Source: Candidatus Aenigmatarchaeota archaeon (GTDB taxonomy: Archaea; Aenigmatarchaeota; Aenigmatarchaeia; QMZP01). From it: a DNA stretch of 64,000 nucleotides. The translations under genes were made by a program, and so were the position numbers. Shown in pieces: positions 11,845 through 31,730 of this stretch. The stretch's first letter is position 1. Each line of letters opens with the position of its first letter. Where the stretch lies: NCBI GenBank assembly GCA_016198585.1, contig JACQII010000016.1, forward strand, positions 88,932-152,931. Direction: 5' to 3'. Below the pieces are notes generated by a model. The model did no database searches. It had not been told where the DNA came from and saw nothing but the letters and a program-made list of their open reading frames with translations.

Positions 11845-13989
11845 TTAGAGCGTTGCCTGTCTGTCGTGCTCGCGGTCGGCCAGGACCTGGTCTTTCACCG
11901 ACGCAGCCGCAGCCGGCCCGATGGCCCGGGCGACCGTGTCGAGCGGGGCCTGCCGCAGCGCGTGCAGGCTCCCCAGGCCAGCGGCGAACAGCCGGCGGGC
12001 ACGCACGCGGCCGACGCCCTTGAGCTTCACCAACGGCAGCAGCTCCTCCCTGATGCCGTACCGCAGGCGGAGCCGCGTCTTCCGGATCTGCCTGATCGCG
12101 TCGCGGTCGTCGCCCAGGAGGGCGAGTTCCTGGACGGCGTAGAGCAGCCAGTCCGCGATCTCCAGCCGGGCGCGCAGCTCCCCGGGCGTGACCCCGTACT
12201 GCTCGAGGAGCAGGTCTTCCCCCTTCTCCTCCATCCACTGCCCGAGCAGCAGCACGAGCTTCAGCCCGCGGAAGAAATCCTCGTACTCCAGGTCCCATTC
12301 TGCCGGCGGAGGCGTCACTAGTCCCTTTTCCTCGCCCGCGAGCAGGTCCTCGATGTCCTGGACGTCGCCCTTCCGGACTGTGAGCGGCGGCTTCATCTCC
12401 AGGCTGGAGGCGACGAGGTGCAGGACCGAGAACGGCGACTGCAGCTTCCCGAGCGAGCGGATCATGAGGTCGGCCGTCAGCGGGTCGACGTACAGTTCCG
12501 CGACGCGCTTCCCCAGTGGCGTCGCCTGCAGCAGCGCGTCCTGGTCCTCCCAGAAGTAGGCCTGGCGGAACTCGTCGTGCCGGCCGTGGTCGGTCATGGT
12601 GATGAACGCGCACCGTTCCAGGAGCCGCAGGGTCTTCTCCAGGTGGCCGCGCAGCTGGCCCAGGTCCTTGTACTGGTAAGCGTAGAACGTCCGGGAGAAG
12701 AACTCCTCGAGCCGGCGCGTGGTAGGCGCGAGGCCGCCCGCGATCAGCGCCAGGACGTGAGTCCGCAGGACCGGCTCGACCCCGAGCTTGGAGGTGATCC
12801 GCTCGGTCTCCCCGTTGATGTAGGTCTCCCAGCAGTGGTCAGCTTCCGCCTCAGTCTTCGGCAGCAGGATGGCCTCGCCCTCCGTGTCGTACGCAGGCCG
12901 TCCTGCGCGGCCGGCCATCTGCTGGATCTCCAGGGCAGGCAGGTAGTCCATCCCGCGGAACGAGGAGAAGCGCTTGAGGTCGCGGATGATCACCCGGTAA
13001 GCGGGCAAGTTCAGTCCCGCCGCCAGGGTCGGGGTCGCGCACACGACCCGGAGCAGGCCTTGCCGGAAGCCTTTCTCGACAGCCGACCGCTGGGGATGGG
13101 TCAGTCCGGCATGGTGGAACGCCGTCCCCTGGAGCACGCAGCGCGCCAGCCGGTCGCACTGGGCGGTCTTGTGCTCGAGCGCGCCCAGGACCTTGTCCGC
13201 GAGCGCGGTGAGCTTCTCGCGGTCGCCGGCCTGCACCCGCGCGCCGAGGGTCTTGCCCAGCTTCTCTGCCGCCGCTTCCGTTCCTTTCCGAGTGGAGATG
13301 AAGACGAGGGACTGCTTGTCGGTCGCGGCGAGTTCCTGCAGCGCGTCGCCGTCGACCGGGTAGCGCCGGTGGGGGGAGAAGAGGACCTCGTTCCCGTAGC
13401 AGACGCCGGTGTAGAGCTTCACCGGCCGGTAGTCGGACTTCACCGCGTCTGCACGCAGCCACCCGGCCAGCTCGTCGTGGTTCCTGATGGTCGCCGAGAG
13501 GCCGATGATGACCGGGTTGGCCTCCTGGAGGCGAGTCAGGACCATCTCCAGGGTCGGCCCGCGGCCCGGGTCGGTGAGGAGGTGGATCTCGTCGGCGATC
13601 ACCAAGCCGACCTGGTGCAACCAGGTGATCCCGTGACGCAGGAGCGAGTCCAGCTTCTCCGACGTCGTCACAATGAGGTCGTACTGGGCCAGCCAGGCGT
13701 CGGAGGCGTCGAGGTCGCCGATCGAGAGGGCGACCTTGAGACGAGGGTATTTCCTCGTGAACTCCTCGTACTTCTCCTGGGCAAGGGCCCGCAGCGGCAC
13801 GATGTAGACGGCCTTCTTCCCGCGCGCGACCGCCTTCAGGGCGGCAATTTCCGCAATCAGGGTCTTTCCCGACGCGGTCGGCGCGGCCACGACCAGGTTG
13901 CGGTCCAGCCCGCGCTCGACCGCCAGCCGCTGGACCGGGTTGAGGGCCGGGAAGCCCGATGCCTGCAGGACCTCGGCAACCTCGTCCAT
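11845..13989 (-). CDS. hel308: Hel308/Hjm-type ski2-like ATP-dependent DNA helicase
   Basis: Walker A AAPTASGKT and DEIH are present, along with helicase C, the ratchet domain and a C-terminal HhH, about 715 aa. The ATG is at 13987-13989; GTG 13995 is the ORF-track start. A TATA lies about 20 nt upstream. Confidence 0.85.
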   Translation of the reverse strand: MDEVAEVLQASGFPALNPVQRLAVERGLDRNLVVAAPTASGKTLIAEIAALKAVARGKKAVYIVPLRALAQEKYEEFTRKYPRLKVALSIGDLDASDAWLAQYDLIVTTSEKLDSLLRHGITWLHQVGLVIADEIHLLTDPGRGPTLEMVLTRLQEANPVIIGLSATIRNHDELAGWLRADAVKSDYRPVKLYTGVCYGNEVLFSPHRRYPVDGDALQELAATDKQSLVFISTRKGTEAAAEKLGKTLGARVQAGDREKLTALADKVLGALEHKTAQCDRLARCVLQGTAFHHAGLTHPQRSAVEKGFRQGLLRVVCATPTLAAGLNLPAYRVIIRDLKRFSSFRGMDYLPALEIQQMAGRAGRPAYDTEGEAILLPKTEAEADHCWETYINGETERITSKLGVEPVLRTHVLALIAGGLAPTTRRLEEFFSRTFYAYQYKDLGQLRGHLEKTLRLLERCAFITMTDHGRHDEFRQAYFWEDQDALLQATPLGKRVAELYVDPLTADLMIRSLGKLQSPFSVLHLVASSLEMKPPLTVRKGDVQDIEDLLAGEEKGLVTPPPAEWDLEYEDFFRGLKLVLLLGQWMEEKGEDLLLEQYGVTPGELRARLEIADWLLYAVQELALLGDDRDAIRQIRKTRLRLRYGIREELLPLVKLKGVGRVRARRLFAAGLGSLHALRQAPLDTVARAIGPAAAASVKDQVLADREHDRQATL

Positions 13990-14007
13990 ACACACAGATT
14001 GGGATAG

Positions 14008-15352: not shown

Positions 15353-15389
15353 GTTTTTATCCCCGGCAAGCCCAAAGGTGTCATACCCT

Positions 15390-18140
15390 ATGGACCTGCA
15401 CGCCGTCGAGAAGAAGTGGCAGCAGCGCTGGCAGGAAGCCCAGGCGTTCGTGCCGCTGCGGAAGGGGAAGAAGGTCTTCGTCACCGTGCCCTACCCCTAC
15501 ACCTCCGGGCCACTGCATATCGGCCACGCCCGGACCTACACCCTGGCCGACTTGTGGGCGCGCTACCAGCGCCTGCAGGGCAAGGCGACGCTCTTCCCGA
15601 TGGCCTTCCACATCTCCGGGACGCCGATCCTGTCCGTCGCCGACCGCATCCGCGAAGGCAGGAAAGAGACCCTCGACCTCTACCGCGACTACATCGGCAT
15701 CTATGAGCCCGACCAGAAGAAGGCCGAAGCGGTCCTCCGCTCGTTCACCGAACCCAAGGCGGTCGCCGACTTCTTCTCCCAGGTGATCGCGCGCGACTTC
15801 CAGTCCCTGGGCTTCTCGATCGACTGGACCCGGTCGTTCACGACCGGCGACCCGGCCTACAGGAAGTTCATCGCGTGGCAGTTCCTCCGCCTCCGCGACG
15901 CCGGCGTCATCACCCGCGGCTCCCATGCCGTGCAGTTCTGCACGCGGGACCAGAACGCCGTCGGCGAGGATGACATCCGCGACGGCGACCTGCTCGACAC
16001 CGGGATCGAGGCCTTCACCGCGGTCAAGTTCCCCTTCCGCGACGGCTTCCTGGTGGCCGCGACGCTGCGGCCGGAGACCCTCTTCGGCGCGACCAACCTC
16101 TGGATCAGGCCGGACGCGACCTACGTCAAGGCCCGGGTCGACGGCGAGATCTGGTACCTCTCCGCCGCGGGGTTCGCGACCCTCGGAGACCAGCACCACA
16201 CCGTCAAGGAGATTGAGCGCTTTCCAGGGAAGAAGCTCGCCGGCAGCGAGGCGCAGTCGCCCGTGGAGAAGCGGATACTGCCGGTCCTCCCCGCGGACTT
16301 CGTCGACCCCGCGTTCGCGACCGGCGTCGTCTTCTCGGTCCCTGCGCATGCGCCGGAGGACTACGTCGCGCTCCGCAACCTGGGCTTCCCGGTCGAGCCG
16401 ATCCCGGTCATCACCGTCCCCGGCTACGGCCCGGTTCCGGCCAAGGAGGTCTGCGACCAGCTCCACATCTCCAGTGCAGGCGACCGGGACCAGCTGAAGG
16501 AGGCGACCCGCATGCTCTACAAGGCCGAGTTCTACCAGGGCGTCCTCGCCCGGGCCGGGCCGTTCAGCGGGACGCCGGTGAAGGAGATCAAGGGCCAGGT
16601 CGCCGCCTGGCTGAAATCCAGGGGGAAGGCCCTGGACTTCTTCGTGCCCAAGACCCCGGACCTGGTCTGCCGCTGCGGCGCCCGCGTGGTGGTCAAGGTC
16701 CTGCCCGACCAGTGGTTCATCAACTACGGCGACCCGGCCTGGAAGGCCAAGACTCGGGCCTGCCTGAAGCAGATGGCCATCATCCCCGAGGGCAGCCGGG
16801 CATCGTTCGAGGCGGCGATCGAGTGGCTGCACGAGCGCGCCTGCGCGCGCCGCCGCGGCCTCGGAACTGCCCTCCCCTGGGACGAGCAGTGGACGATCGA
16901 GTCGCTGTCCGATTCGACCATCTACCCCGCGTTCTACCTGCTCGCTCACCTGGTTCGGGACCAGGACGCGGAGAAGCTGGTGCCGGCGGTCTTCGACTTC
17001 GCGCTCCTCGGGAAAGGAACAGCAGCGGCCGCGGCGAAAGCTTCCGGCCTTCCCCTGAAACTGCTGCAGTCCCTCCGGAAGGAATTCAGTTTCTGGTACC
17101 CGGTCGACCTGCGCCACACCGCGGTCCCGCACCTGACCAACCACCTGACCTTCTACCTCTTCACCCACGCGTTACTCTTCCCGGAGCAGCACTGGCCGAA
17201 GGCGATCTCCCTGAACGAGCTGCTCGTCCGGGACGGTCATAAGATGAGCAAATCCAAGGGGAACGTGATCCCTCTCGCCGACGTCTCCCGGCAGTACTCA
17301 GCCGACCTCTACCGCCTCTACATCGCCTCCGGCGCGGACATGAGCGCGGTGATCGACTGGACCCAGGAGGGCATCGAGACCGTGCGCAAGCGCCTGCTGG
17401 CGTTCATCGAGTTGGCGGAACGTGCTGGTTCGGGGAAGAGCCCGATGGACGCCTGGCTGCGGTCGCGCTTCCACACCATGCTGCAGGACCTCGGCCAGGA
17501 CATTGAGGGTTTCCGTTTCCGGTCGTACGCGCAACGGGCCTTCTTCGGGATGATGAACGACGTCGCGCACTTCTTCCGCCGCGGCGGGAAGGCAATCCCC
17601 GGCGACCTTCTGAAGGACTGGTTCATCGTGCTCTCGCCGCTGATCCCGCATGTCTGCGAAGAGCTCTGGGAGCGGCAAGACGGGAAAGGCCTGGTCTCCC
17701 TCGCGCGCTGGCCGCGGCCTGACCCGAAGGCCGTCGATCCCGCCCTGGAGGCCGGGGAAGACCTCGTCGGGCGGACGGTCCAGGACATCCGCGAGATCCT
17801 CAAGCTCGTCGATCGCAAGCCCGGGAAGGTCCACCTCTACGTCGCGCCGGACTGGAAGTACGTCATGCACCGCCGGATTGCGGACGGAGCAGACCTCAAG
17901 ACCCTGATGGCCGACCCCGCGATCCGTGCCCAGGGAAAGGCTGCCGCAGTCTTCTTCGAGCGCGCGAAGAAACTGCCTGCGGCTGCCGGCCCTGCCCAGG
18001 AGCTCGCGGCCCTGCACGGGGCGCGCACCTTCCTGGAGCGGGAGTTCGGCTGCCCGATCGAGGTGGTGAGCGCGCTGCAGGCCACCGGGGCCCGGGCGGC
18101 CAAAGCCGAGCCGGGCAAGCCGGGCATTGAAGTGGTCTGA
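15390..18140 (+). CDS. leuS: Leucyl-tRNA synthetase (archaeal type)
   Basis: HIGHARTY (HIGH) and KMSKSKGN (KMSKS) are present over about 916 aa. ATG 15390 lies about 28 nt after the TATA 'GAGTTTTTATCC'. The GTG at 15378 is the ORF-track start. Confidence 0.9.
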   Translation: MDLHAVEKKWQQRWQEAQAFVPLRKGKKVFVTVPYPYTSGPLHIGHARTYTLADLWARYQRLQGKATLFPMAFHISGTPILSVADRIREGRKETLDLYRDYIGIYEPDQKKAEAVLRSFTEPKAVADFFSQVIARDFQSLGFSIDWTRSFTTGDPAYRKFIAWQFLRLRDAGVITRGSHAVQFCTRDQNAVGEDDIRDGDLLDTGIEAFTAVKFPFRDGFLVAATLRPETLFGATNLWIRPDATYVKARVDGEIWYLSAAGFATLGDQHHTVKEIERFPGKKLAGSEAQSPVEKRILPVLPADFVDPAFATGVVFSVPAHAPEDYVALRNLGFPVEPIPVITVPGYGPVPAKEVCDQLHISSAGDRDQLKEATRMLYKAEFYQGVLARAGPFSGTPVKEIKGQVAAWLKSRGKALDFFVPKTPDLVCRCGARVVVKVLPDQWFINYGDPAWKAKTRACLKQMAIIPEGSRASFEAAIEWLHERACARRRGLGTALPWDEQWTIESLSDSTIYPAFYLLAHLVRDQDAEKLVPAVFDFALLGKGTAAAAAKASGLPLKLLQSLRKEFSFWYPVDLRHTAVPHLTNHLTFYLFTHALLFPEQHWPKAISLNELLVRDGHKMSKSKGNVIPLADVSRQYSADLYRLYIASGADMSAVIDWTQEGIETVRKRLLAFIELAERAGSGKSPMDAWLRSRFHTMLQDLGQDIEGFRFRSYAQRAFFGMMNDVAHFFRRGGKAIPGDLLKDWFIVLSPLIPHVCEELWERQDGKGLVSLARWPRPDPKAVDPALEAGEDLVGRTVQDIREILKLVDRKPGKVHLYVAPDWKYVMHRRIADGADLKTLMADPAIRAQGKAAAVFFERAKKLPAAAGPAQELAALHGARTFLEREFGCPIEVVSALQATGARAAKAEPGKPGIEVV

Positions 18141-18698: not shown

Positions 18699-21005
18699 TC
18701 AGAACCCTCCGCAGTCCGCGCACTCCGAGCATTCGCCCGGATCGCAGACCCCGTTGTTGAGGCAGCCCGAGCAGGCATTGCCGCCGCCGAAGCCCTCACC
18801 CTCGAACCCACCGCCCTCGCCAAAGCTGCCCGGAGGCGGTCCGAATCCGTCGTCCTCGAAACCCGGCGGGGGACCGAAGTCCTGGCCCTCTCCCTGGAAT
18901 CCCTGGTCGCCACCAGGACCGCCCGGTCCGTGGCCGCCGAAGATCTGGGCCAGCTTCTGGCAGAGCGGGAAATTCCCTGGCTTGAAGCACGCCTCGGCGC
19001 AGCTCTGCTGGTCCGTGCACCCGAGCTCCTGCATGATGGTCTGGGCCTCAGGAGGGGCGGCGCTCGCGAAGTTCCCGGTGCGGATCGCGTCGGCCATCGG
19101 GCCCACGCAGTTCCACTCGTCCATGGTTTGGGGGCCGGGGCCTTCCTCGCCCACCTGCATGCCCTTGGAGAAGTCGGCGATCTTGCACTCCATGGCGAAG
19201 TCCGGCTTCTCGGTCATCACCGCTTTCATGATGCAGCGACCCTGATCGTCGACGCCTTCGAGGCGGACTTCGACATTGTCGTCCGGCTGGAACGCGGCCG
19301 GTTCGCAGATGCGGAACGCCTTCTCGAAGGCCACGAAATCGTCGGTCTCCTCGACCCGTCCCTCCTCGAAGCTGCTGACGGCCTCCTCGCTCGAACTGAG
19401 CATGACATAGAGGATGTCCTTGAGGGTGACTTCCTTGAGGTGAGCGAGACCGCGCTTGAACTCCTCGATGTCTCCGGTGGTGAGGTCGTTCAGCTGCTGG
19501 CGGAGCCGGTCCTTGATCTGGTTGACCTCGTCCTTCGCATCGGTGAACATGGACGCGACCCGCCGGAAGCGGTTCTCGTCGGCCGAGCCGACCGAGGCAT
19601 AGTAGTCGGCGAGGGCGGTCGACTTCCGGGAGAGCTCGTCGATCTCCTTGATCAGCGCCTCCAGCTTGAAAGCGATCCCGAGCAAGGCAGAGGTCTCGGG
19701 AACCTTGTCGACCTTCTTGTATTCGACCCGGTTCGGATCGCCGCGGCGGATGCATTCGGAGAATGCCATGCACCCGCGGCCATCCTGCTGGACGACCAGT
19801 TCACCGCCTTCCTTCTCGCAGTGGGCATAGGCCTCCTCGGGCAGGGAACGCTGGCAGAACGGTTCCTCTTCGCAGCGCACGATCTTGCAGCCGCTGTCAT
19901 CATAATCAGGCCGGGGATAGCGCCCTTGGTCACTGCATTCTTTCGCCTCGGCCCGCACATCCTCGCACACTTGGCCGTGCTCGATGCACTTGCCGATCTT
20001 GCAGCCACCCTCGAAGACGATCTTCCCCTCGAGGCCGAGCTCGCTGCAGGCGTGCAGCTTGGTCTCGATGGCTTCGGGAGCCGGGCACTCGGGCTGCGGG
20101 CCGAAGAAACTGCGCTGCTCCTGGAAGGCGCATTCGACGATCTCACAGCCCTGGGAGTCGGTCCTAGCCTCGGGCCGGCCGCCTTCCTCCAGGCAGCGCT
20201 TCACCCGGTCGGCCGGCACAGCTGCACAGGATGACTTCTCGTTCTCGCAGAAGACGTGGGTGTAGCCGGACTCGTCCACCTGCTTGACACATTCGCCAGG
20301 CAGCGGACACTGACAGGAGCAGAAGTTGTCCTGCTTCTCGCAGGCCACCGTGCTGCCGTCCGGGCAGGAGATCTGGTCTGGGCACGAAAGAGTAGGAGGG
20401 GCGTCGCTGCACGGGCACGGACCTTTGCACTCGATGCCCGAGCCGGCCACGTCAGCCTCGCAACTGTTGCCGTAGGTCTGGCCGTTCTTGCCGCACACCG
20501 GCTCGTAGACCTCCGGGCAATCTCCTGGACAGTCGCTCAGGCAGGTTTCTTTCTCGCCGTCCTCGCAGATCCCATTCCCGCAGGCCGACGCGCTCGTTGT
20601 GGAGGTAGAGGGTGTGCAGTCGCTCGGGCACGTCTCCTTTTCGCTGTCGCTCGCGCAGATACCATCGCCGCAGGTGATCAGCGGCCCGGTCGAGGAGCCG
20701 CCGCCTGACCCGGTGTCGGAGCCGCCGCCGGAACCACCACCCGAGGATGGGCAGGAGGGCGTGCAGGACGAGCAGGTCCCGCCGCTGCAGGCGTTCTCGC
20801 AGGAGACAGTCGTCCCGTCCGCGCAGGTGATCGTCGTGGGCGAGCAGCTCACGCCCGCGCAGGGGTCAGTCGGACAGTCTGCGGGGCAGCTCTCCTTCTC
20901 GCCATCACCGCAGCTCCCGTCACCGCAGGTCTGGGCCGCGGCCAGAGTGGGAAGTGCCAGAATCAGGACTGCCGAGAGCAGGATCAGGCCGAGGGCGGCT
21001 CTCAT
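18699..21005 (-). CDS. Large secreted cysteine-rich protein with CGDGxC-type modules and a Kazal-type domain (768 aa)
   Basis: There is a signal peptide MRAALGLILLSAVLILALPTLAAA. Repeats CGDGSCGDGEKESCPADC, CGDGICASDSEKETCPSDC and CGNGICEDGEKETCLSDC occur. The Kazal signature is CPEVYEPVCGKNGQTYGNSCEADVAGSGIEC. There is a Gly/Pro-rich acidic C-terminus. Confidence 0.7.
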   Translation of the reverse strand: MRAALGLILLSAVLILALPTLAAAQTCGDGSCGDGEKESCPADCPTDPCAGVSCSPTTITCADGTTVSCENACSGGTCSSCTPSCPSSGGGSGGGSDTGSGGGSSTGPLITCGDGICASDSEKETCPSDCTPSTSTTSASACGNGICEDGEKETCLSDCPGDCPEVYEPVCGKNGQTYGNSCEADVAGSGIECKGPCPCSDAPPTLSCPDQISCPDGSTVACEKQDNFCSCQCPLPGECVKQVDESGYTHVFCENEKSSCAAVPADRVKRCLEEGGRPEARTDSQGCEIVECAFQEQRSFFGPQPECPAPEAIETKLHACSELGLEGKIVFEGGCKIGKCIEHGQVCEDVRAEAKECSDQGRYPRPDYDDSGCKIVRCEEEPFCQRSLPEEAYAHCEKEGGELVVQQDGRGCMAFSECIRRGDPNRVEYKKVDKVPETSALLGIAFKLEALIKEIDELSRKSTALADYYASVGSADENRFRRVASMFTDAKDEVNQIKDRLRQQLNDLTTGDIEEFKRGLAHLKEVTLKDILYVMLSSSEEAVSSFEEGRVEETDDFVAFEKAFRICEPAAFQPDDNVEVRLEGVDDQGRCIMKAVMTEKPDFAMECKIADFSKGMQVGEEGPGPQTMDEWNCVGPMADAIRTGNFASAAPPEAQTIMQELGCTDQQSCAEACFKPGNFPLCQKLAQIFGGHGPGGPGGDQGFQGEGQDFGPPPGFEDDGFGPPPGSFGEGGGFEGEGFGGGNACSGCLNNGVCDPGECSECADCGGF

Positions 21006-21019
21006 GCCATATACTATTG

Positions 21020-21087
21020 CCGCGTTTCCTTATATAGCCGGTGAGATCGACCCGCAGGGCATTTATGTCCTTCTGCCGAGTAAGCGC
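21020..21087. promoter_or_regulatory. Divergent promoter region with the palindromic TATA 'CTTATATAG' (21029-21038)
   Basis: It lies 24-33 nt upstream of the minus-strand ATG (21005) and about 50 nt upstream of the plus ATG 21088. Confidence 0.4.
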
Positions 21088-22407
21088 ATGACCCCGGCCC
21101 AGATCCTCGCGTACTATGCGCGGGAGGACGTGCAGCAGGCCCTGGTGGACGCGGGCCGCGACCGGGAGGTGGTGGGCGTCTTCAAGACCGGCGCCTTCGG
21201 CACGCGGCCGAACATGCTCCTCTACCCCGGCGACGTGCTCGCGCAGGCGCGCGCGGGCGCGATCGAGTTCCACTGCTCGCTCGAGCGCTGGGAACGGCCG
21301 ATGCTGCTCCAGACCGAGGAGCGGAAGGGCTTTGACCTGGTCTTCGACCTGGACGGCAAGGACGTCGAGCACGGGAAAGCAGCTGCGCAGGCGCTGGTCA
21401 CCGCTCTGGAGCGGCATGGCATCCGCCATGTCTCGGTGAAGTTCTCCGGGAACCGGGGGTTCCACCTTGGGATTCCCTGGGAGTCCATCCCCAAGGAGGT
21501 CGGCCTGGTGCCGACAGCCCGGCTGTTCCCCGATGCTGCCAGGAAGGTCTCCCTGTACCTCCGCGAGTCGATCCGCGACGACCTGACTGCGCGCCTCCTG
21601 AAGCGCTGGACAGTCGAGCAGCTGGAGGAGATCGCCGGCAGGCCGGTCGCCACCAAGGAGGGCATCGATCCGTTCAAGGTCGTCGACATCGACCCGATCC
21701 TCATCTCCCCGCGCCACCTCTACCGCATGCCCTACTCCTTGAACAAGAAGTCGTTCCTGGTCTCGCTCCCGTTGCGGGCGCGCGACCTCGAGGGGTTCGA
21801 GAAGTCCCAGGCCGACCCTGCAACGGTCCAGGTCAGCGCCCGCTTCCTGGAACGAGGGGAAGAGGGCGAGGCCGACGCGCTCTTCGCGGAAGGACTGGAC
21901 TGGTTCGCGAAACGGAAGCAGGAGCAGCGCAAGCCAGGAGGGAAGCGGACCGGCCTCACGAAGAAGGTCCCGGAATCCATGTTCCCGCCCTGCATGAAGA
22001 CCATCCTCCTCGGGATCCGGGACGGCAAACGCAGGTCCGTGTTCGCGCTGGTCAACTTCCTCTCGGCCATGAAGTGGAGCTGGGAGGACATCGAAGTCGG
22101 CCTCCTCGCGTGGAACCGCAAGAACACGCCGCCACTCCAGGAGACGTACCTCACCCAGCAGCTGCGCTACTACCGGGACAAGAAGAAGTTCCCGCCCCCG
22201 AACTGCACCCAGGAAGGCTGGTACGACGCCATGGGGGTCTGCGCGCCCGACAAGGTCTGCGTCGCCCGGGAGAACATCAAGAACCCGGTCAACTACCCGT
22301 TTCGCATCCTGCGCGCCCGGGCGCGCGACGCCCGCCAGGCCCCCAAGCGGCCCACCCGCGAGCCGCAGGGGCCGCGCGCCGAGCGGGACGAGCGCGAGCC
22401 GCTCTAG
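21088..22407 (+). CDS. priS: DNA primase small subunit PriS fused to a PriL-CTD-like Cys4 (Fe-S) domain
   Basis: The AEP motifs are LVFDLDGKD (DxD), FSGNRGFHL (SGxRGxH) and VVDIDPILISPRHLYRMPYSLNKKS. The C-terminal 130 aa carry MFPPCMKTILLG...PNCTQEGWYDAMGVCAPDKVC. 'FPPCM' and four Cys are reminiscent of the PriL 4Fe-4S domain. Confidence 0.7.
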   Translation: MTPAQILAYYAREDVQQALVDAGRDREVVGVFKTGAFGTRPNMLLYPGDVLAQARAGAIEFHCSLERWERPMLLQTEERKGFDLVFDLDGKDVEHGKAAAQALVTALERHGIRHVSVKFSGNRGFHLGIPWESIPKEVGLVPTARLFPDAARKVSLYLRESIRDDLTARLLKRWTVEQLEEIAGRPVATKEGIDPFKVVDIDPILISPRHLYRMPYSLNKKSFLVSLPLRARDLEGFEKSQADPATVQVSARFLERGEEGEADALFAEGLDWFAKRKQEQRKPGGKRTGLTKKVPESMFPPCMKTILLGIRDGKRRSVFALVNFLSAMKWSWEDIEVGLLAWNRKNTPPLQETYLTQQLRYYRDKKKFPPPNCTQEGWYDAMGVCAPDKVCVARENIKNPVNYPFRILRARARDARQAPKRPTREPQGPRAERDEREPL

Positions 22408-22450
22408 TCCTTCCCCGCACCCCCGGAGGGTAGGCATTGCGAAGAAGGTT

Positions 22451-23731
22451 TCAGAGATTCCCCACGACGCGAGCAGCCTCTATCTGGTCAAGTGAAAAGT
22501 CACCTACCAAGGGCAGAGACACGACGGCATGGGTTCGCGTATCGATAATCGCCATCTTCACTGGACTACTGGTGCCGTAATAATACGCGAAGAGGGATCC
22601 ATCCTTTGACAGTGCATTGTCCTGAGACCATCCCCCCGACTGGGCTTCAAGGGGGAGGGGGAAATGCATGAACGAGCAGCTTGACACGTTGACTTCATTG
22701 AAACCGAACGAGCCTTCCGCATACGCCCGTTCACCATTCGGGCTGAAGTGGAAATAGCCGAGTTGCGTGTCAGGGATGAGCGTTTGGCAGAGTGTGGCCG
22801 CACCCTTCACCACGGTTACCATGTTGTGTGTAAGGTTCTCTACCCGGGCCATGACGAGTGTGTCCGTGCGATCACGGTGAGCGAATGTTTTGAGATAGTT
22901 GCTTCCTATGTCGATATCCGTGTACGTCAGGTTGCTATACCCGCGGCGAAGGGCAATGGTGTATGGGGGATGAAAGGAGGACTGCCCGGCGAAGCCGGAG
23001 TCCGTGATGCCCCAATAGGCGCCTGTGGTGGTCGCGGTGAGCCAGCCGATGGTGTGGAGCGTCTTGTCCGGTCCGGTCGAGAGCTCAAATCCCGCCGGTA
23101 TCTGACCGAGGGACGTGAGTGTGTCCAGGTCAATCACGTGGACCGCATTTTGGATTCCTCCTGTCAGGACGTACACCGTTGTTCCGTCCGGGGAGATGGA
23201 CATCATTGCGGACCCGGGAACGGTCAACGTGGCTGCCACGGTGTTCAGCCTAAGGGCATAGAGCAGCAAAGTCGAGGGGCTCGCGAGTGCAACGAGGTAC
23301 TTCCCATCAGGGGTGACCTCAAGCCCGATGATGGTGCCGGTGGCAGGGGGCAATGTCCCGACGAGCTGGAAGGCCCGCGTATCGATGATCGCGATTTCCC
23401 CGAACCCTTGGCTCACGTAGGCGATGTCTCGGAATGGGTGTGCCTCTACTCTGCCTATTGATCCCATGCTGGTTATTCCCGACGGAATGAAAACAGCAGA
23501 GAGGTTGGGGTCAGGATACACCACAAAGAGCCCACGCTGCCCACCCATCATTCCTGACTTGATGAAATAGGTCGGCAGATCAAATGGCGTCTTCCCCGCA
23601 AGGCCGTTGTTGGGTGAGATGCTGATGGAAGGGGGGAACATTGCGAGTGCTTTTCCCACGTGAGGGAGGGTAGACGTGACAATCAGCGCCATCGCTAAGG
23701 AGATAACGATGAATGCATAGCGGGAAACCAT
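22451..23731 (-). CDS. Membrane-anchored YVTN-type beta-propeller repeat protein
   Basis: An N-terminal anchor MVSRYAFIVISLAMALIVTS is followed by repeats such as EVTPDGKYLVALAS and ISPDGTTVYVLTGGIQNAVHVIDLDT. The GC is slightly lower than the local background. Confidence 0.6.
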   Translation of the reverse strand: MVSRYAFIVISLAMALIVTSTLPHVGKALAMFPPSISISPNNGLAGKTPFDLPTYFIKSGMMGGQRGLFVVYPDPNLSAVFIPSGITSMGSIGRVEAHPFRDIAYVSQGFGEIAIIDTRAFQLVGTLPPATGTIIGLEVTPDGKYLVALASPSTLLLYALRLNTVAATLTVPGSAMMSISPDGTTVYVLTGGIQNAVHVIDLDTLTSLGQIPAGFELSTGPDKTLHTIGWLTATTTGAYWGITDSGFAGQSSFHPPYTIALRRGYSNLTYTDIDIGSNYLKTFAHRDRTDTLVMARVENLTHNMVTVVKGAATLCQTLIPDTQLGYFHFSPNGERAYAEGSFGFNEVNVSSCSFMHFPLPLEAQSGGWSQDNALSKDGSLFAYYYGTSSPVKMAIIDTRTHAVVSLPLVGDFSLDQIEAARVVGNL

Positions 23732-23861
23732 GCAGATCTATAAGATGTTAGTTTTTTAAACCTGGACTGCAGACTTCACTTTTTTCACAATTACGCGCCC
23801 TCCTGAAGACTGCGGCAAACGGTCGCACCAGACTCCCGTCTCCAGATAAAGGCTGCGCACG

Positions 23862-24617
23862 TTAGGCCTGCGCGAGCTCCCGCGCGCGCTCCTTGACGCG
23901 GAGCGGCGGCGCCGCGGGCTCGTAGAGACGGCCAAGCAGCCAGTCTGCGTATTCGGTGAATTCGTTGAGCACCTCACCGGCTCCCCGGGCCTTCAGGCCG
24001 TACTCGACCGCCGCGCGGTCCCCGTCTGTCCCCGGCCGGCCGATGCACCGGATCGCGCCGTCGACCTGCCGCAGGAGGATGAACTCTTTCTCCTTGTCGG
24101 GAGGGGGGTTCCAGCGCCATTCGCGAAGCAGCAACGAGCGGCCATGCTCGCCGTGGCCTTCCTCGTCGGCGACCATCCCCTCGGCTGCCCCAGCATATGC
24201 CCACAGAGGACAATAGGGTGGGCTTCGTGCGGTCCTCGCAACATTGCGCAGCACGAGGAGACCCGCGTAGTCGTTCAGTGCCTGGGCCAGCAGGAACTCG
24301 ATCCAGCTCCCGGGCGGCGGGATGCCGTCCGGGCCTTTCACCATGCGCTCCACGACCCCGGGCACGATGTCCATCCTGACGTGGCCGGAGATGTAGTAAT
24401 CGCGGGCATGCGCGTATTCCCAGTCGACTCGCAAGCAGCGTTCGTAGTGCTGCATCTCCTCCACCAAGACCTGCTGCACATGTGCGCGATCCTCGGGCAA
24501 CGGGGCCATCTCCAAGACGGGCCGGTAGGCTTCCGTCGCCCAGAGCTCGCGGTAGGCGTGGCTGACCAGCATCTTCCGCTGCAGGTTCGCCATGTGCGCT
24601 ATACGCTCAGGATCCAT
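23862..24617 (-). CDS. Hypothetical protein, possibly ferritin-like diiron four-helix bundle
   Basis: E...ExxH pairs occur twice (ELWATEAYR...EEMQHYE and IEFLLAQ...ADEEGHGEH). This is inference only. The gene is divergent from the TrmB paralog at 24676. Confidence 0.35.
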   Translation of the reverse strand: MDPERIAHMANLQRKMLVSHAYRELWATEAYRPVLEMAPLPEDRAHVQQVLVEEMQHYERCLRVDWEYAHARDYYISGHVRMDIVPGVVERMVKGPDGIPPPGSWIEFLLAQALNDYAGLLVLRNVARTARSPPYCPLWAYAGAAEGMVADEEGHGEHGRSLLLREWRWNPPPDKEKEFILLRQVDGAIRCIGRPGTDGDRAAVEYGLKARGAGEVLNEFTEYADWLLGRLYEPAAPPLRVKERARELAQA

Positions 24618-24675
24618 ACTGATGGGGACGCAGCATAGCTTTTATATCTTTGTCGTCAAGAAGATAACGACAATT

Positions 24676-25398
24676 ATGGAAAATGGGCTGCGCGCGGCCG
24701 GACTGACGGAGCGGGAGGCGAAGGTCTACCTCGCGCTGCTCCGGCGGGGGCCTTCCGCCGTGCACGAGATCGCGGAGGAAGCCGGGATCTACCGGACGTA
24801 CGCATACGAGGTCCTCCGTTCGCTCCGACGGAAAGGCCTGGTCTCCTCCCTCGCAAAGGATGGGAGGCGCTGTGTTGAAGCCGCTGACCCGGAGAAACTG
24901 CTGAGCGCCATGAAGGAGCGGGAAGCCCAGGTGCGGGCAGCCATGCCCGCCCTGCGGCAACTCTCCCGCTCTCTCCCCCAGAAGCCCCGCATCGCGGTCT
25001 TCGAAGGGAAGGAGGGGCTGAGAACGATCCTCGACGACATCATCCGGACCGGCCAGGACATCATGGTCATCGGTTCCACCGCGCGGCAGTTGGAGGTCCT
25101 CCACCACTCCTTCCCGGCCTTCATACGGCAGCGGGTGAAGGCCGGCCTGCAGACGAGGGTCATCACGGAGCGATCGCGCCTCACCCTCGCGAAGCAAAGG
25201 CAAGGCCGCGCCGAACTGCGGGAGGTGCGCTTCTTCCCCCGTGACACCGACTTCCCCGTCGCCGTCAACATCTACGGGAGGAAGGTGGCGATGCTTGCGA
25301 TGGGCAGGAACCCTGTCGGCATCATCATCGAGGACGAGGGGATCGCGAAGGCCCACGCATTCATGTTCAGCATGCTCTGGGGGAGCGCAGAGAGGTAG
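24676..25398 (+). CDS. TrmB-family transcriptional regulator (third paralog)
   Basis: MENGLRAAGLTEREAKVYLALLRRGPSAVHEIAEEAGIYRTYAYEVLRSLRRKGLV is a wHTH with a C-terminal sensor domain. A TATA-like 'GCTTTTATATCTTT' lies at 24638-24651, about 25 nt upstream. Confidence 0.75.
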   Translation: MENGLRAAGLTEREAKVYLALLRRGPSAVHEIAEEAGIYRTYAYEVLRSLRRKGLVSSLAKDGRRCVEAADPEKLLSAMKEREAQVRAAMPALRQLSRSLPQKPRIAVFEGKEGLRTILDDIIRTGQDIMVIGSTARQLEVLHHSFPAFIRQRVKAGLQTRVITERSRLTLAKQRQGRAELREVRFFPRDTDFPVAVNIYGRKVAMLAMGRNPVGIIIEDEGIAKAHAFMFSMLWGSAER

Positions 25399-25435: not shown

Positions 25436-25909
25436 ATGCTCACCTACGATGTGCTGCGGTCCTTCCTGGACCAGGAGAAGGCCGCGACCGGGCTGGTGCG
25501 GCTGCCGGACGATTTCTTCGACCAGGTTGCCGCATACTTCCGCGGCAAGGCCGACCTCCAGCGGGATGCAGACGCAGCAAAGCGGCTGCTGCTGGACCTG
25601 CTCGAGGTCCGCGAGCGCAAGCTGCTGACGGCGGCCGTGTTCGCCGTCCGCTCAGGAGTGGAGCCGGACGTGCTCCCCGAGGAGAAGGCCTTCCTCTCCG
25701 CGCTCCGCGAAGCTGTCCAGACCTTCGGCGACAAGAAGAAGTTCCTCCTCGCCGGCGGCCAGGTGGAGGTCCTCCAACCGGTTCCCGCCTTCCTGGGGAC
25801 GGACCTGAAGACGTACGGCCCGCTCGAGCCCGGCCAAGTCGTCGCGCTCCCGCCCCAGGTCGCGAGCCTGCTCGTGGAGAAGGGCGCAGCGAAGCCGGCC
25901 GGCGCGTAA
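25436..25909 (+). CDS. GINS complex subunit (Gins51/Gins15-like)
   Basis: A helical A-domain (LPDDFFDQVAAYF...LLLDLLEVRERKLLTAA) is followed by a beta B-domain (VEVLQPVPAFLGTDLKTYGPLEPGQVVALPPQVASLLVEKGAA). A TATA-like 'CCCCTTTTAAAGC' lies about 20 nt upstream. Confidence 0.55.
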   Translation: MLTYDVLRSFLDQEKAATGLVRLPDDFFDQVAAYFRGKADLQRDADAAKRLLLDLLEVRERKLLTAAVFAVRSGVEPDVLPEEKAFLSALREAVQTFGDKKKFLLAGGQVEVLQPVPAFLGTDLKTYGPLEPGQVVALPPQVASLLVEKGAAKPAGA

Positions 25910-25913: not shown

Positions 25914-26315
25914 CTACGTGATCTCGTCGAGCGCGCGGTTCACGAGAGCATCAGCCCGTCGGATCATCGGATGCGTGCGCACCACGTGCCGGTAGGCGAT
26001 CGACCCGAACGACCGCTCCCGTTCCTTCAGCTCGGCATGCAGCTTCTTCAGGCCCGGGTCGCGGATCCGGTACGCTCCGGTCACCTGGCGCACGACCAGC
26101 TCGCTGTCCATGGTGCAGACGACTGAACTCCCATAGCGCCGCGCGAGCTCGAGGGCCTTCAGCAGGGCCCGGTACTCGGCCTGGTTGTTCGTCGCGCGGC
26201 CGATGCGCTCCTTGTGCTCGAGGATGATGCGGTCGCCGTCGGCGATGACGACGCCGATCGCCGCTGGGCCGGGATTGCCCCGCGATCCGCCGTCCGAGTA
26301 GGAAAAGAGGGTCAC
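25914..26315 (-). CDS. rnhA: Ribonuclease HI (type 1 RNase H)
   Basis: The motifs YSDGGSRGNPGPAAIGVV, TNNQAEYRALLKALELA and DSELVVRQ are present in a 133-aa protein. Confidence 0.85.
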   Translation of the reverse strand: MTLFSYSDGGSRGNPGPAAIGVVIADGDRIILEHKERIGRATNNQAEYRALLKALELARRYGSSVVCTMDSELVVRQVTGAYRIRDPGLKKLHAELKERERSFGSIAYRHVVRTHPMIRRADALVNRALDEIT

Positions 26316-28240: not shown

Positions 28241-28354
28241 TGCGTCGGGCGAGAGTCGAACTCGCGTTACAGCCTATTTGCCCGGCGTTTCTGGGTGCAG
28301 CCTCTTTTGAAGAGGTGCTGGCAAGGCCGCGTACTACCACTATACTACCGACGC
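28241..28354 (-). tRNA. tRNA-Gly(GCC) with a 43-nt intron after position 37
   Basis: The acceptor stem is GCGTCGG/CCGACGC. The D-arm is GTAT-AGTGGTA-GTAC. The anticodon stem CGGCC/GGCTG has the loop TTGCCA with anticodon GCC. The T-arm is GCGAG-TTCGACT-CTCGC. The discriminator is A, and CCA is not encoded. The 43-nt insertion 3' of the anticodon matches the canonical archaeal intron position. Confidence 0.7.
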
Positions 28355-28527: not shown

Positions 28528-29847
28528 CTAGCCGGTCATCCCGAACTGGCGCGCGATGTTGGCGAGCGGCCCGCGCTTCAGGCCCTTCCCGCCCTTCGCG
28601 AGCTTGACGACCTGCTTCGCCTGCTTGTAGTACTTCAGCAGCTCGCGCACGTCGGCCTCGCTCGTCCCCGATCCCTTCGCGATCCGCACTATCCGCGAGG
28701 CCTTGATGAGGTCAGGGTCAGCGCGTTCGGCCGGGGTCATGGACTGGATGGTGAACTTCCACTTCTTCATCTTCCCTTCCTGGACGTCGAGCATGCCCTT
28801 CGGGATCTTCGCCTTGCTCAGTCCCGGGATCATGTCCACCATCTTCGACAGCGATCCCATCCCTTGCATGGACTGGAGCTGGTCAAAGAAGTCGTCCAGG
28901 GTGAACGACCCCTCCAGCAGGCGCTTGCCCACCTTGTCCGCGCCGGCCTCTTTCGCTTTCTCCAGCAGGCCTTGGAGGTCGCCGTAGCCGATCAGCCGGG
29001 AGACGAACCGCTGCGGGTCGTAGGCCTCCAGGTCCTCGGGGCGCTCGCCGACCCCGATGAACTTGACCTTGGCGCCGGTCGCGTTCGTCGCGGCCAGCGC
29101 GCCGCCGCCCTTGGCGGTTCCGTCGAGTTTGGTAATGACGACGCCGGTGATCCCCACGAGGCGGTTGAACTCCTCCGCCTGCTTGCGGGCCGCCTGGCCG
29201 ATGTCCGCGGGCAGCACGAGCAAAACCTCGTCCGGCTTGATCTCCTGGCCGAGGGTCTTGAGTTCCTTGGCGAGATCAGCATCGAGCGCGTCGCGGCCCG
29301 CCGAGTCGAAGATCAGCACGTCCTCCTTCATGGCGAGTCCTGTCTTCGCCACGGCCACGGCGTCGGTCCCCTCGGCCACGACCCGGGCCTCGACTTTCTT
29401 CCCGACCTGGCGCAGCTGCTCCTGCGCAGCCGGTCGGTGGACGTCGCAGCCTACCAGCCCGACCGACAGGCCGCGGGTCTTGAACCACTTGGCGAGCTTC
29501 CCCGAGAGCGTCGTCTTCCCGGACCCGAAGAGGCCGACCAGGAGGATGCGCTGCTTCCGCAGCTGGACCTCCCCGCGCTCCGCTCCCAGGAAGGCTACCA
29601 GCTCGTCGTACAGGACCTTCAGGAAATGCTCCTTGAGCGTCATCCCCGCCGGCGGCGGGCTGCCGAGGACCTGCTTCCTGATCCGGCTGGACAGGTCAGC
29701 CACTAGGGCGACGTCCGCGTCAGCCTGGAGGAGGCTCCGCTGGAGGTCGCGGACGACCGCGTCGACCGCCTCCTTGTCCACCACGCCGAGGCCGGCAATC
29801 CGGCGAAGGGCGTCTTTCAGGCCAGAGCCCAGGTTCTCGAGGACCAT
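28528..29847 (-). CDS. srp54: Signal recognition particle protein SRP54
   Basis: An N domain, an SRP GTPase domain (GLFGSGKTT, DTAGR-like, TKLDG) and an M domain are present over 439 aa. Confidence 0.9.
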   Translation of the reverse strand: MVLENLGSGLKDALRRIAGLGVVDKEAVDAVVRDLQRSLLQADADVALVADLSSRIRKQVLGSPPPAGMTLKEHFLKVLYDELVAFLGAERGEVQLRKQRILLVGLFGSGKTTLSGKLAKWFKTRGLSVGLVGCDVHRPAAQEQLRQVGKKVEARVVAEGTDAVAVAKTGLAMKEDVLIFDSAGRDALDADLAKELKTLGQEIKPDEVLLVLPADIGQAARKQAEEFNRLVGITGVVITKLDGTAKGGGALAATNATGAKVKFIGVGERPEDLEAYDPQRFVSRLIGYGDLQGLLEKAKEAGADKVGKRLLEGSFTLDDFFDQLQSMQGMGSLSKMVDMIPGLSKAKIPKGMLDVQEGKMKKWKFTIQSMTPAERADPDLIKASRIVRIAKGSGTSEADVRELLKYYKQAKQVVKLAKGGKGLKRGPLANIARQFGMTG

Positions 29848-29941
29848 ACCTACACTTTCCCTCCCCTCTTAAGAAGGCTTCCGGGCCCCCTAGAGGCCGA
29901 TCACCGCCTTGGCGATCCTTATTAAAGCTTCCTCCTCATCA

Positions 29942-30974: not shown

Positions 30975-31730
30975 CTATTCCTGCAGCGTGAACGCGCCTT
31001 CGCCACCGGCCTTCTCGATGGCCTTGACCAGTGAAGCTGCTTCTTCCTCGATCGCGGCCCGGAGCTTCTTGACGTCGTTGCCCGTCGCCACGAGACGGTA
31101 GGTCGGGGCTGAGATGTACGAGACCTGGAAGCCGCGCTTCTCCACGCCGGCGAGCAGGGACTTGATGACCGCGATCCCGTCGGGCTGGTAGCACCGCAGT
31201 TCCAGGTCGCCCTTCAGGACATAGGTCTTCCCGCCAAAGCGCTTCTGGACGACCTCGGTGATCGCCTTCGCCCAGGCCGGGGGGACGCCCTTCGTCTTCA
31301 GGAGGTCGGGATTCTTGACCGCCAGGTCGAAGGCCTTGGTGAGCGACCCGAACTCCTCCTGTAACAGGAAGCCGACCTCCTGGTAGGCCTGCTCGAGGGA
31401 CTTCTTCATCGTCTTGGCGATTTGCTCGAGGATGTTCTCGGCCTTGCGCTCCCGCTTGAACTCGTTCATGGCCTTGCTGGTGTCCTCGTGGCGGACCCGC
31501 TTCATGGAGACCGAGATCGTCTCGCCCTCGACCCGGACGACCCTGCACACGACGTACTGGTTCTCCTTGAGGAACTCACGGATGTCGCGGACCCAGCGCG
31601 ACGCCACTTCAGAGACGTGCATCATCCCCGGCCGGTTGTACTCCAGCAGCTGGACCGTGGCCGAGTTGGGGAAGAGCTTGATGACTCTGCACACGACCAG
31701 CTCGTCCCGTTCCGGAAGACCGCGTTTCAT
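30975..31730 (-). CDS. eif2a: Translation initiation factor aIF2 alpha subunit
   Basis: An S1 domain (CRVIKLFPNSATVQLLEYN...MHVSEV) is present in a 251-aa protein. It sits in the conserved L44e-S27e-eIF2alpha operon. Confidence 0.85.
   Translation of the reverse strand: MKRGLPERDELVVCRVIKLFPNSATVQLLEYNRPGMMHVSEVASRWVRDIREFLKENQYVVCRVVRVEGETISVSMKRVRHEDTSKAMNEFKRERKAENILEQIAKTMKKSLEQAYQEVGFLLQEEFGSLTKAFDLAVKNPDLLKTKGVPPAWAKAITEVVQKRFGGKTYVLKGDLELRCYQPDGIAVIKSLLAGVEKRGFQVSYISAPTYRLVATGNDVKKLRAAIEEEAASLVKAIEKAGGEGAFTLQE

Follow-up and report, generated by a model that had tools for sequence, protein, structure and literature searches.

A single gene within the window (by which we mean the whole 64-kb stretch of DNA that was analysed) very probably encodes the chromosomal replicative primase of its Aenigmarchaeota host, which would make it orthologous to the NEQ395 type of monomeric primase, in which PriS and PriL are fused. 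The encoded protein combines, on one polypeptide chain, a PriS-like AEP catalytic core, a linker composed of a long helix and a hinge, and a homologue of PriL's C-terminal domain (CTD). Architecture, distribution and biochemistry of the fused PriS-PriL primase are already published, and the gene is an ordinary member of this known family. The features referred to below are the following.

21088..22407, forward strand: fused priS-priL(CTD) primase gene, 439 codons plus stop, by translation
21088..21822, forward strand: AEP (PriS-like) catalytic domain, residues 1-245, delimited by Pfam, AF2, Foldseek and family profile
21334..21354, forward strand: motif I, D83-L-V-F-D87-L-D89, putative metal-binding acidic residues; D83, D87 and D89 invariant (56/56)
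21445..21465, forward strand: motif II (sxH), S120-G-N-R-G-F-H126; H126 invariant in the 56-sequence alignment
21691..21726, forward strand: motif III region, D202 ... R209-H210 ... R213; D202, R209, H210 and R213 invariant
21874..21981, forward strand: linker, long alpha-helix (residues 263-281, DSSP on the AF2 model) and then a hinge modelled with low confidence (residues ~282-298)
21982..22338, forward strand: homologue of the PriL C-terminal domain, residues 299-417, helical, four Cys (PF04104, NCBIfam, profile)
21991..21993, forward strand: C302, FPPC block, predicted Fe-S ligand 1; invariant (56/56); counterpart of the FPPC Cys in the alignment with P. abyssi PriL
22204..22206, forward strand: C373, PPPNC block, predicted Fe-S ligand 2; 55/56; counterpart of the PPNC Cys in the alignment with P. 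abyssi PriL
22240..22242, forward strand: C385, GVC-x-PD, predicted Fe-S ligand 3; 55/56; paired with a Cys in the alignment with P. abyssi PriL
22258..22260, forward strand: C391, predicted Fe-S ligand 4; 55/56; paired with a Cys in the alignment with P. abyssi PriL
22318..22404, forward strand: C-terminal tail (residues 411-439), basic and with little conservation, K/R-rich and of variable length across the family; pLDDT 61-75
25436..25909, forward strand: gins51 (Gins15), primase partner gene, Pfam Gins51_C and Sld5; displaced by 3 kb here
25917..26315, reverse strand: RNase HI, matching RNase H/RVT_3

Gene call and family membership

All five sequence strings quoted in the original prediction, namely DLVFDLDGKD, FSGNRGFHL, DIDPILISPRHLYRMPYSLNKKS, FPPCMKTILLG and PPPNCTQEGWYDAMGVCAPDKVC, are present in the translation of 21088-22407 (+). 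The mechanically delimited open reading frame is longer and extends to an upstream GTG at 20599. The ATG at 21088 occupies the same position as the N-termini of 55 aligned homologues, and the upstream extension would run into a divergent gene starting at 21005; 21088 is supported by the 56-member family alignment as the probable start codon. A 505-aa open reading frame on the opposite strand (20920..22437, -) was rejected as a true gene as it finds no Pfam match, whereas the forward frame possesses hundreds of homologues. It is a typical high-GC shadow ORF.

The 439-aa protein is 100% identical to the MAG-derived NCBI entry 'hypothetical protein HY369_05285 [Candidatus Aenigmarchaeota archaeon]', and its closest database relatives reach an identity of only about 61%. 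Altogether, 286 database homologues were retrieved with E-values, for non-identical sequences, down to 1e-170, a signal far beyond chance. One of them (P0074) carries the source name 'non-homologous end-joining DNA ligase LigD'. Conservation of individual residues was counted over an alignment of 56 diverse family sequences.

Catalytic domain

Motifs I (hhhDhD/E), II (sxH) and III (hD/E) are intact, reading DLVFDLD, SGNRGFH and VVDID...RH, and the catalytic residues are invariant in the 56 sequences, which bears out the claim that the protein possesses all three AEP motifs. Position 90 is occupied by Gly, compared to Cys in 53 of the 56 aligned homologues. The match to the Pfam family PF01896 runs from residue 86 to residue 230, takes in positions 1-162 of a model of 163 and spans all three motifs, its score of 23.0 being just under the gathering score of 26.8. 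The best Pfam match of the catalytic half is PF21686 (LigD_Prim-Pol; E 5e-8, above the cut-off), which is restricted to residues 50-137, the motif I-II region, and to model positions 76-158. The NCBIfam models of PriS and PriL each match the expected half of the protein; those of canonical PriS score below their cut-offs (TIGR00335 with 14.9 vs 143.5, NF001641 with 22.4 vs 326), as does TIGR02778, used as a test for a LigD PolDom (27.1 vs 214.7). A PriS zinc knuckle, sought in the N-terminal 298 residues, was not found, this segment harbouring a single Cys (C63). Judged by the cut-offs and by the zinc knuckle, the protein would lie outside canonical archaeal PriS (PF01896/TIGR00335).

The AF2 model of the whole protein (pLDDT 92) displays the AEP domain, the long helix, the hinge and the helical CTD in that order. 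Its pLDDT mostly exceeds 90 across residues 1-245, while the mean drops to 63 in the block 281-290, which belongs to the linker. With the catalytic half, Foldseek retrieves Prim-PolC, LigD PolDom and the PriS of human, yeast and Pyrococcus with E-values from 5e-9 to 1e-5, the top matches being Prim-PolC of M. smegmatis and LigD polymerase domains, not PriS. Compared to PDB sequences by means of the family profile, the catalytic half matches PriS chains, and the whole-protein profile hits PriL and PriS chains only, apart from a sub-threshold match to U6 snRNA phosphodiesterase (5uqj_A, E 0.058).

C-terminal domain

The C-terminal part had been claimed to resemble the PriL-CTD on account of its four Cys and its FPPC block, and the profile searches agree with this. 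PF04104 (primase large subunit) matches residues 274-375 with 29.3 bits compared to a curated cut-off of 22.4 and recognises 49 of the 56 family members, and several NCBIfam PriL models match residues 274-423. When the CTD family profile is compared to all PDB sequences, PriL from Pyrococcus abyssi constitutes the sole match (E 2.8e-7), the match beginning at about residue 207-219 of P. abyssi PriL, past the N-terminal domain (NTD; residues 1-210) of that protein. A PriL NTD is absent from the 439-aa protein. Cys residues are present at positions 63, 302, 373, 385 and 391 of the whole protein, exactly four of them in the C-terminal domain, and all four of the latter align to Cys residues of the P. 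abyssi PriL CTD, in which a 4Fe-4S cluster has been reported (PMC11686378). The alternative that had been named as refuting the original prediction, a PriS zinc knuckle formed by the C-terminal Cys residues, is to be rejected, since these align to PriL-CTD Cys and are located some 100 residues past the end of the catalytic core. A Foldseek search of the PDB with an AF2 model of the CTD only (pLDDT 80; about 50-60 in the Cys-loop region) returned nothing significant, the Fe-S domain of yeast PriL (6di6) ranking fourth with an E-value of 7.9. This fold search having given no structural confirmation, it is the sequence profiles that support the assignment as a PriL-CTD.

Genomic context and distribution

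The original prediction had further proposed a small replication neighbourhood including GINS and RNase HI. Both genes are present, and the former part of the proposal is sustained by related loci, in 44 of 82 of which gins51 is linked to the primase gene; in 39 of the 82 it follows immediately downstream, with the same orientation and a gap whose median is 85 bp. RNase HI, however, is found beside the primase gene in 0 of the 82 related loci and was discarded as a functionally linked neighbour. The PriS-Gins15/L44E-S27E-aIF2alpha supercluster is a known archaeal linkage (PMC2643942), and gins51 is here part of this supercluster in rearranged form. Three inserted genes separate the primase gene from gins51, and the GC content falls to 57.6% at 24-28 kb of the window. 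The primase gene is placed between LeuRS and the Gins51 housekeeping cluster, and the housekeeping synteny, comprising a Hel308-like helicase, LeuRS, primase, Gins51, L44e, S27e, eIF2alpha and SRP54, is kept in distant relatives.

No second PriS-like or PriL-CTD-like ORF is present in the six-frame translation of the 64-kb window, as the family HMMs of the NTD and the CTD find nothing else at E < 0.8, in accordance with the earlier statement that the window contains no separate priL. Each retrieved locus harbours one primase copy, and the gene may be the sole primase gene of its genome. Integrase or other mobile-element genes were not detected among the adjoining ORFs scanned, and the neighbours scanned contain no ligase or Ku domain.

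No fewer than 585 GTDB species genomes contain full-length relatives, and the 80 best come from Aenigmatarchaeota, Woesearchaeota, Nanoarchaeia and Parvarchaeota; tblastn yields 38-43% identity over residues ~1-410 to genomes of Woesearchaeota, Nanoarchaeia/Nanoarchaeota and Parvarchaeota. A priS-priL fusion was reportedly noted in Nanoarchaeum by Iyer et al. in 2005. Raymann et al. (2014) extended the fusion to further nanosized archaea and found the fused primases to be related at the sequence level (PMC3914693). Dombrowski et al. (2020) described fused priS-priL as a synapomorphy of Undinarchaeota and DPANN Cluster 2, explicitly listing Aenigmarchaeota in Cluster 2, all members of which were reported to possess the fused version (PMC7414124). 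The statement in the original prediction that such fusions are known only from a few reduced archaeal lineages is contradicted by this spread, and, with the fusion both published and so widely distributed, the novelty of the gene was overestimated.

Comparison with known primases

The closest characterised counterpart is NEQ395 from N. equitans, which Schneider, Bergsch and Lipps (2023) described as an active, monomeric, [4Fe-4S]-containing primase (PMC10250227). Both proteins consist of an AEP core, a linker helix of about 20-30 residues, a flexible hinge and a four-Cys PriL-CTD, both lack the PriL-NTD, and they are of similar size (393 aa in NEQ395, 439 aa here). The linker helix (residues 251-280) and the protease-sensitive hinge (282-290) of NEQ395 are laid out as in the present protein. 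Equating residues by spacing, without direct sequence alignment, we find a counterpart for every mutated NEQ395 residue, including each of the four Cys residues and the R-x-R-x-x-F sequence that comes after the first of them. Accordingly, D87/D89 of motif I correspond to D87/D89 of NEQ395, which are essential there, S120/R123/H126 of motif II to S119/K122/H125, and D202/H210/R213 of motif III to D194/H202/R205, all of which are essential in NEQ395 (PMC10250227). The four Cys residues are spaced 71/12/6 apart, much as in NEQ395 (75/12/8), where mutating each of the four Cys residues removed the brown colour and the absorbance at 410 nm, the Cys-to-Ala mutants still being active in vitro (PMC10250227). 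The C-terminal tail is longer than that of NEQ395 and R-rich. While NEQ395 originates from a hyperthermophilic Nanoarchaeote, the present host is an Aenigmarchaeote represented by a mesophilic groundwater-type MAG of ~63% GC, both belonging to DPANN Cluster 2. Within its own family, the fused priS-priL known from DPANN Cluster 2 and from Undinarchaeota (PMC3914693, PMC7414124), the gene exhibits no substantive difference; the MAG copy is simply unannotated.

With canonical PriS-PriL (P. abyssi 9F26/9F28, human 4RR2) the protein shares homologous catalytic motifs and a homologue of the Fe-S CTD with the FPPC and PPNC...C...C blocks, and there, too, the catalytic gene is linked to gins51 (Gins15) and the L44E-S27E-aIF2alpha cluster (PMC2643942). 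Canonical PriS-PriL, however, is made up of two polypeptides compared to one here, which lacks the PriL NTD (~210 aa) that docks onto PriS. Likewise, neither the zinc knuckle nor the helical subdomain of canonical PriS is present. PolpTN2 of the Thermococcus nautili plasmid pTN2 and ORF904 of pRN1 also combine, on one chain, an AEP and a helper domain that is either PriL-CTD-like or a helix bundle, yet they are plasmid replicases of independent origin without sequence similarity to the fused DPANN primases (PMC3914693), whereas the gene investigated here is chromosomal and embedded in housekeeping synteny.

Proposed mechanism

Primase activity would, by homology to NEQ395 and heterodimeric PriSL, proceed as follows. 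The N-terminal AEP domain would bind two divalent metals via D87, D89 and D202, and the elongating NTP via H62, S120, R123, H210 and R213. A [4Fe-4S] cluster predicted to reside on C302, C373, C385 and C391 would hold the PriL-CTD-like helical domain together, whose residues K314, R316 and F319 may offer a surface for the initiating nucleotide and the 5'-end of the primer. A swing of the CTD on the linker of helix and hinge would then enable dinucleotide formation and set the primer length. Since both domains would act in cis on a single polypeptide, the PriL N-terminal docking domain would be dispensable.

Alternative interpretations

The similarity of the catalytic half to LigD and Prim-PolC might suggest a repair-type AEP, i.e. 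an NHEJ or gap-filling polymerase related to the LigD PolDom or Prim-PolC, rather than a replicative primase. PF21686 as best Pfam match, the top Foldseek matches and the LigD label of homologue P0074 point in this direction. The PF21686 match, however, covers only 83 of 254 model positions while that of PF01896 spans all three motifs, and the PDB sequences hit by the family profile include those of PriS and PriL but none of LigD. As, in addition, the protein carries a fused PriL-CTD, is arranged in an operon-like manner with gins51 in 39/82 loci and is surrounded by LeuRS, Gins51 and similar genes with no ligase or Ku domain among those scanned, a repair-type enzyme is barely plausible. Practically negligible is the probability of a primase-polymerase from an integrated mobile element which independently arrived at a PriS-PriL-like fusion, as in PolpTN2 of pTN2 or the pRN1 replicase. 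Archaeal plasmids do carry such fusions, transfer by integrative elements has been discussed as a possible origin of the primases of nanosized archaea (PMC3914693), and the three genes inserted before gins51 as well as the local GC content would fit. Against this stand the position of the gene, flanked by LeuRS on one side and the Gins51/LSIN housekeeping cluster on the other in a synteny kept in distant relatives, the single copy in the window and in each retrieved locus, the occurrence in at least 585 species genomes and the adjoining ORFs scanned, which include no integrase or element genes. Moreover, Raymann et al. found no sequence similarity between PolpTN2 and the primases of nanosized archaea (PMC3914693).

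With regard to the C-terminal domain, the four Cys residues might bind zinc, or the domain might bind no metal at all, as a helical domain of the PriX/PriCT type. The non-significant Foldseek result for the CTD-only model and the lack of the cluster in some PriL-like helper domains such as PriX (PMC10250227) are compatible with this view. We consider it highly unlikely, given that the Cys residues align with the four of the 4Fe-4S-containing P. abyssi PriL CTD, are spaced similarly to those of NEQ395, whose mutants lost the 410-nm absorbance, and recur in at least 98% of the 56 family members. An interpretation concerning the whole family, which we strongly doubt as well, would see in the DPANN fused primase no streamlined PriS plus PriL, but a primase-polymerase with an ancestry of its own, perhaps in a mobile element, which acquired a PriL-CTD and supplanted the ancestral heterodimer. 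It is suggested by the catalytic half scoring at least as well against bacterial AEPs of the LigD/Prim-PolC type as against canonical PriS and being devoid of any PriS-specific elaborations. Published split-domain phylogenies oppose it, and the similarity scores in its favour are ambiguous. If it were true, this deep-branching, GC-rich and metabolically richer Aenigmarchaeote would be a useful intermediate for testing it.

Implications

Adopting the identification as an NEQ395-type replicative primase, the 'hypothetical' NCBI record and its LigD-labelled relative should be re-annotated as fused DPANN-type DNA primase (PriS-PriL). Beyond annotation the significance is small. The fusion is a useful phylogenetic marker which places the genome in DPANN Cluster 2, and, being mesophilic and GC-rich, this orthologue could offer an alternative to NEQ395 where a minimal model primase is wanted for work on the role of the [4Fe-4S] cluster.

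Gene model and reading frame

Translation of positions 21088-22407 (+) yields 439 residues followed by a stop codon, and all peptide strings cited in the original prediction are present in this product. Mechanical calling opens the ORF further upstream, with a GTG at 20599. The N-termini of 55 aligned homologues coincide with the ATG at 21088, and a start upstream of it would overlap the divergent gene beginning at 21005. The window sequence has a GC content of 58-66% and long ORFs in many frames. An antisense ORF at 20920-22437 (-), 505 aa in length, spans the entire primase gene and could mislead gene callers. Pfam finds nothing in this antisense ORF, but 286 homologues (E ≤ 1e-3) were retrieved for the (+) frame, and we regard the former as a typical high-GC shadow ORF.

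Within the 82-bp divergent intergenic region (21006-21087) two A/T-rich boxes stand out amid GC-rich DNA: TTATATA (21030-21036), separated by about 25-31 nt from the start codon of the minus-strand gene, and TTTATG (21062-21067), about 21-26 nt ahead of the primase ATG. Such placement would be compatible with a back-to-back pair of archaeal TATA boxes driving leaderless transcripts.

Domain architecture

Pfam matches of the window protein
Residues 50-137: LigD_Prim-Pol (PF21686), E 5e-8
Residues 86-230: DNA_primase_S (PF01896), E 1e-4, model positions 1-162/163, score just under cut-off
Residues 274-375: DNA_primase_lrg (PF04104), E 7e-7, 29.3 bits (cut-off 22.4)

NCBIfam models of PriS and LigD match the N-terminal half and those of PriL residues 274-423, in each case with scores far under the equivalog cut-offs. 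Among 56 diverse family members, PF04104 and PF21686 are each matched in 49 and PF01896 in 42. A profile built from the last 165 residues of 25 family members and run against 177,635 PDB sequences finds exactly one match, P. abyssi PriL (9f26_B, E 2.8e-7). The match consists of two blocks, FPPC(I/V)KN..G and PPNC...C.PD..C...NP..Y, so that all four C-terminal cysteines align Cys-to-Cys. The matched residues, 207-256 and 334-378, belong to the PriL CTD placed beyond residue 210, which, according to the depositors, contains a 4Fe-4S cluster (PMC11686378). With the full-length family profile only PriL and PriS chains are found in the PDB, apart from a sub-threshold match to the U6 snRNA phosphodiesterase 5uqj_A (E 0.058); LigD is not matched. 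The above-cut-off PF04104 match and the aligned cysteines thus bear out the single-chain reading of a PriS core joined to a PriL-CTD-like domain.

It had also been claimed that the window holds no separate priL. HMMs of both halves reveal no second copy of either among its 879 ORFs; since the C-terminal profile recovers the canonical P. abyssi PriL from the whole PDB set, a canonical priL among these ORFs would have been seen.

Conserved residues

In the alignment of 56 sequences D83, D87, D89, H126, D202, R209, H210, R213 and C302 are invariant, while C373, C385 and C391 are each kept in 55. Position 314 is Arg or Lys throughout, R316 is invariant and F319 is Phe in 48 of 56. Cysteines occur in the window protein at positions 63, 302, 373, 385 and 391 only, so the catalytic half cannot contain a PriS zinc knuckle. 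Residue 90 (21355-21357), directly following the catalytic DxD, is Gly here and Cys in 53/56 aligned homologues (DLDC); H95 is His in 54/56. Speculatively, C90 and H95 could be what remains of the PriS zinc knuckle, which was lost in this lineage.

By spacing, we infer the following correspondence to NEQ395, the monomeric fused primase of Nanoarchaeum equitans.

Putative counterparts, NEQ395 first, window protein second
Catalytic aspartates: D87/D89; D87/D89
S119/K122/H125; S120/R123/H126
D194/H202/R205; D202/H210/R213
First cysteine with +12/+14/+17: C289, R301/R303/F306; C302, K314/R316/F319
Cysteine spacing: 75/12/8; 71/12/6
Linker helix: 251-280; 263-281

Counterparts can hence be assigned for the catalytic residues, the four cysteines, the linker helix and the R/R/F set behind the first cysteine, which reads K/R/F here.

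Genomic neighbourhood

Genes around the primase
11848-13995 (-): Hel308-like helicase, upstream
PRPP synthetase, upstream
15378-18137 (+): LeuRS, upstream
18699-21005 (-): Cys-rich 768-aa protein, upstream, divergent
22454-23731 (-): beta-propeller protein, downstream
23865-24617 (-): ORF without assigned function, downstream
TrmB regulator, downstream, before Gins51
25436-25906 (+): Gins51, downstream
25917-26315 (-): RNase HI, downstream
28531-29847 (-): SRP54, further downstream
30978-31730 (-): eIF2alpha, further downstream
31736-31900 (-): S27e, further downstream
32212-32499 (-): L44e, further downstream

Berthon et al. (2008) described a PriS-Gins15 / L44E-S27E-aIF2alpha supercluster (PMC2643942), and the region from the primase via Gins51 to L44e/S27e/eIF2alpha is this supercluster in rearranged form. 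On the 665-kb contig of a relative (L002) the genes run helicase, LeuRS, primase, Gins51, L44e, S27e, eIF2alpha, SRP54; those from LeuRS to SRP54 share a strand, and the helicase is encoded on the other one, as it is in the window. Compared with this collinear arrangement, the L44e/S27e/eIF2alpha/SRP54 block of the window is inverted, and three genes (22454-25395) split the primase from gins51. GC falls to 57.6% at 24-28 kb. Of 82 related loci, 39 have gins51 as the next gene downstream of the primase (median gap 85 bp), and none has RNase HI as a neighbour; of the replication neighbourhood originally proposed, the Gins51 linkage therefore stands and the RNase HI part does not.

The 768-aa protein, for which Pfam gives no match at E ≤ 0.01, has a signal-peptide-like N-terminus, repeated CGDG-x-C...EKE-x-CP-x-DC modules and Gly-rich stretches, and is probably secreted or surface-exposed. 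A CARDB-domain (cell-adhesion-related) protein, 29909-30934 (+), is inserted between SRP54 and eIF2alpha. A 114-nt tRNA at 28241-28354 (-), scored by Rfam with 53 bits and absent from the ARAGORN output, is suggested by its length to be an intron-containing archaeal tRNA.

Alternative assignments

The PF21686 match could point to a LigD-type repair polymerase, yet it is local and confined to the motif I-II region, and the protein is fused to a PriL-CTD and linked to gins51, with neither a ligase nor a Ku domain among the scanned neighbours. A mobile-element primase-polymerase is likewise disfavoured, both by the housekeeping synteny and because nearly the whole clade has the gene. That the four C-terminal cysteines bind zinc instead of an Fe-S cluster is unlikely because of their Cys-for-Cys alignment with PriL-CTD and the spectroscopy of NEQ395. 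The reading of the protein as a predicted primase with a predicted Fe-S domain is supported.

Other features of the window

A compact cluster of TCA-cycle-type genes, assigned by Pfam, occupies 34082-42259.

34082-35053: isocitrate/isopropylmalate dehydrogenase
35053-36165: citrate synthase
36165-37061: malate/lactate dehydrogenase
36890-38770: succinate dehydrogenase/fumarate reductase flavoprotein
39567-40823 (-): aconitase-family protein
40886-42259: class II fumarase

Core metabolism is generally said to be missing from DPANN Cluster 2 genomes, so this GC-rich Aenigmarchaeote seems to have a richer metabolism than is typical.

Distribution and relation to known fused primases

An identical sequence, encoded on a 182,967-bp contig of a Candidatus Aenigmarchaeota MAG, is deposited at NCBI as 'hypothetical protein HY369_05285', the public record of the window protein (P0001) thus carrying the label 'hypothetical'. 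The best 120 of the 286 homologues are nearly all 408-481 aa long (one has 571 aa), and the named entries among them are mostly Aenigmarchaeota. The record of one homologue (P0074) reads 'non-homologous end-joining DNA ligase LigD [Candidatus Thorarchaeota]', an annotation problem. A scan with one genome per GTDB species confirmed at least 585 relatives, the best 80 of which cover residues ~1-410 at 38-60% identity and come from Aenigmatarchaeota, Woesearchaeota, Nanoarchaeia/Nanoarchaeota and Parvarchaeota. The DPANN-type fused primase is also present in several genomes titled 'uncultured Methanosarcinales archaeon' (loci L045, L055, L057, L063, L067, L075, L076, L079 and L081), which suggests mislabelled MAG taxonomy.

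The fusion of a PriS catalytic domain with a PriL Fe-S domain was described in N. equitans by Iyer et al. (2005), as recounted by Raymann et al. (2014), who extended it to Nanohaloarchaea and Parvarchaeota and found the fused proteins mutually related in sequence, the plasmid enzyme PolpTN2 being an independent fusion (PMC3914693). Dombrowski et al. (2020) report the fused gene for Undinarchaeota and all members of DPANN Cluster 2, in which they explicitly include Aenigmarchaeota, and treat the fusion as a synapomorphy, Cluster 1 retaining canonical priS and priL (PMC7414124). NEQ395, purified by Schneider et al. (2023), is a brown monomer with an absorbance at 410 nm that is gone in C289A, C364A, C376A and C384A. 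Its priming is sequence-specific and gives primers of ~9 nt; the PriL domain (R301, R303, F306) is required for initiation, dispensable for extension and functional only in cis, and the length of the linker, which comprises helix 251-280 and a protease-sensitive hinge (282-290), affects primer length (PMC10250227).

By analogy, the mechanism of the window protein is most likely that of NEQ395: the AEP domain would catalyse phosphodiester formation, the tethered Fe-S domain would hold the initiating nucleotide and the primer 5' end, and the hinge geometry would restrict primer length. The window protein is an ordinary member of an already described family, at present annotated as 'hypothetical'.
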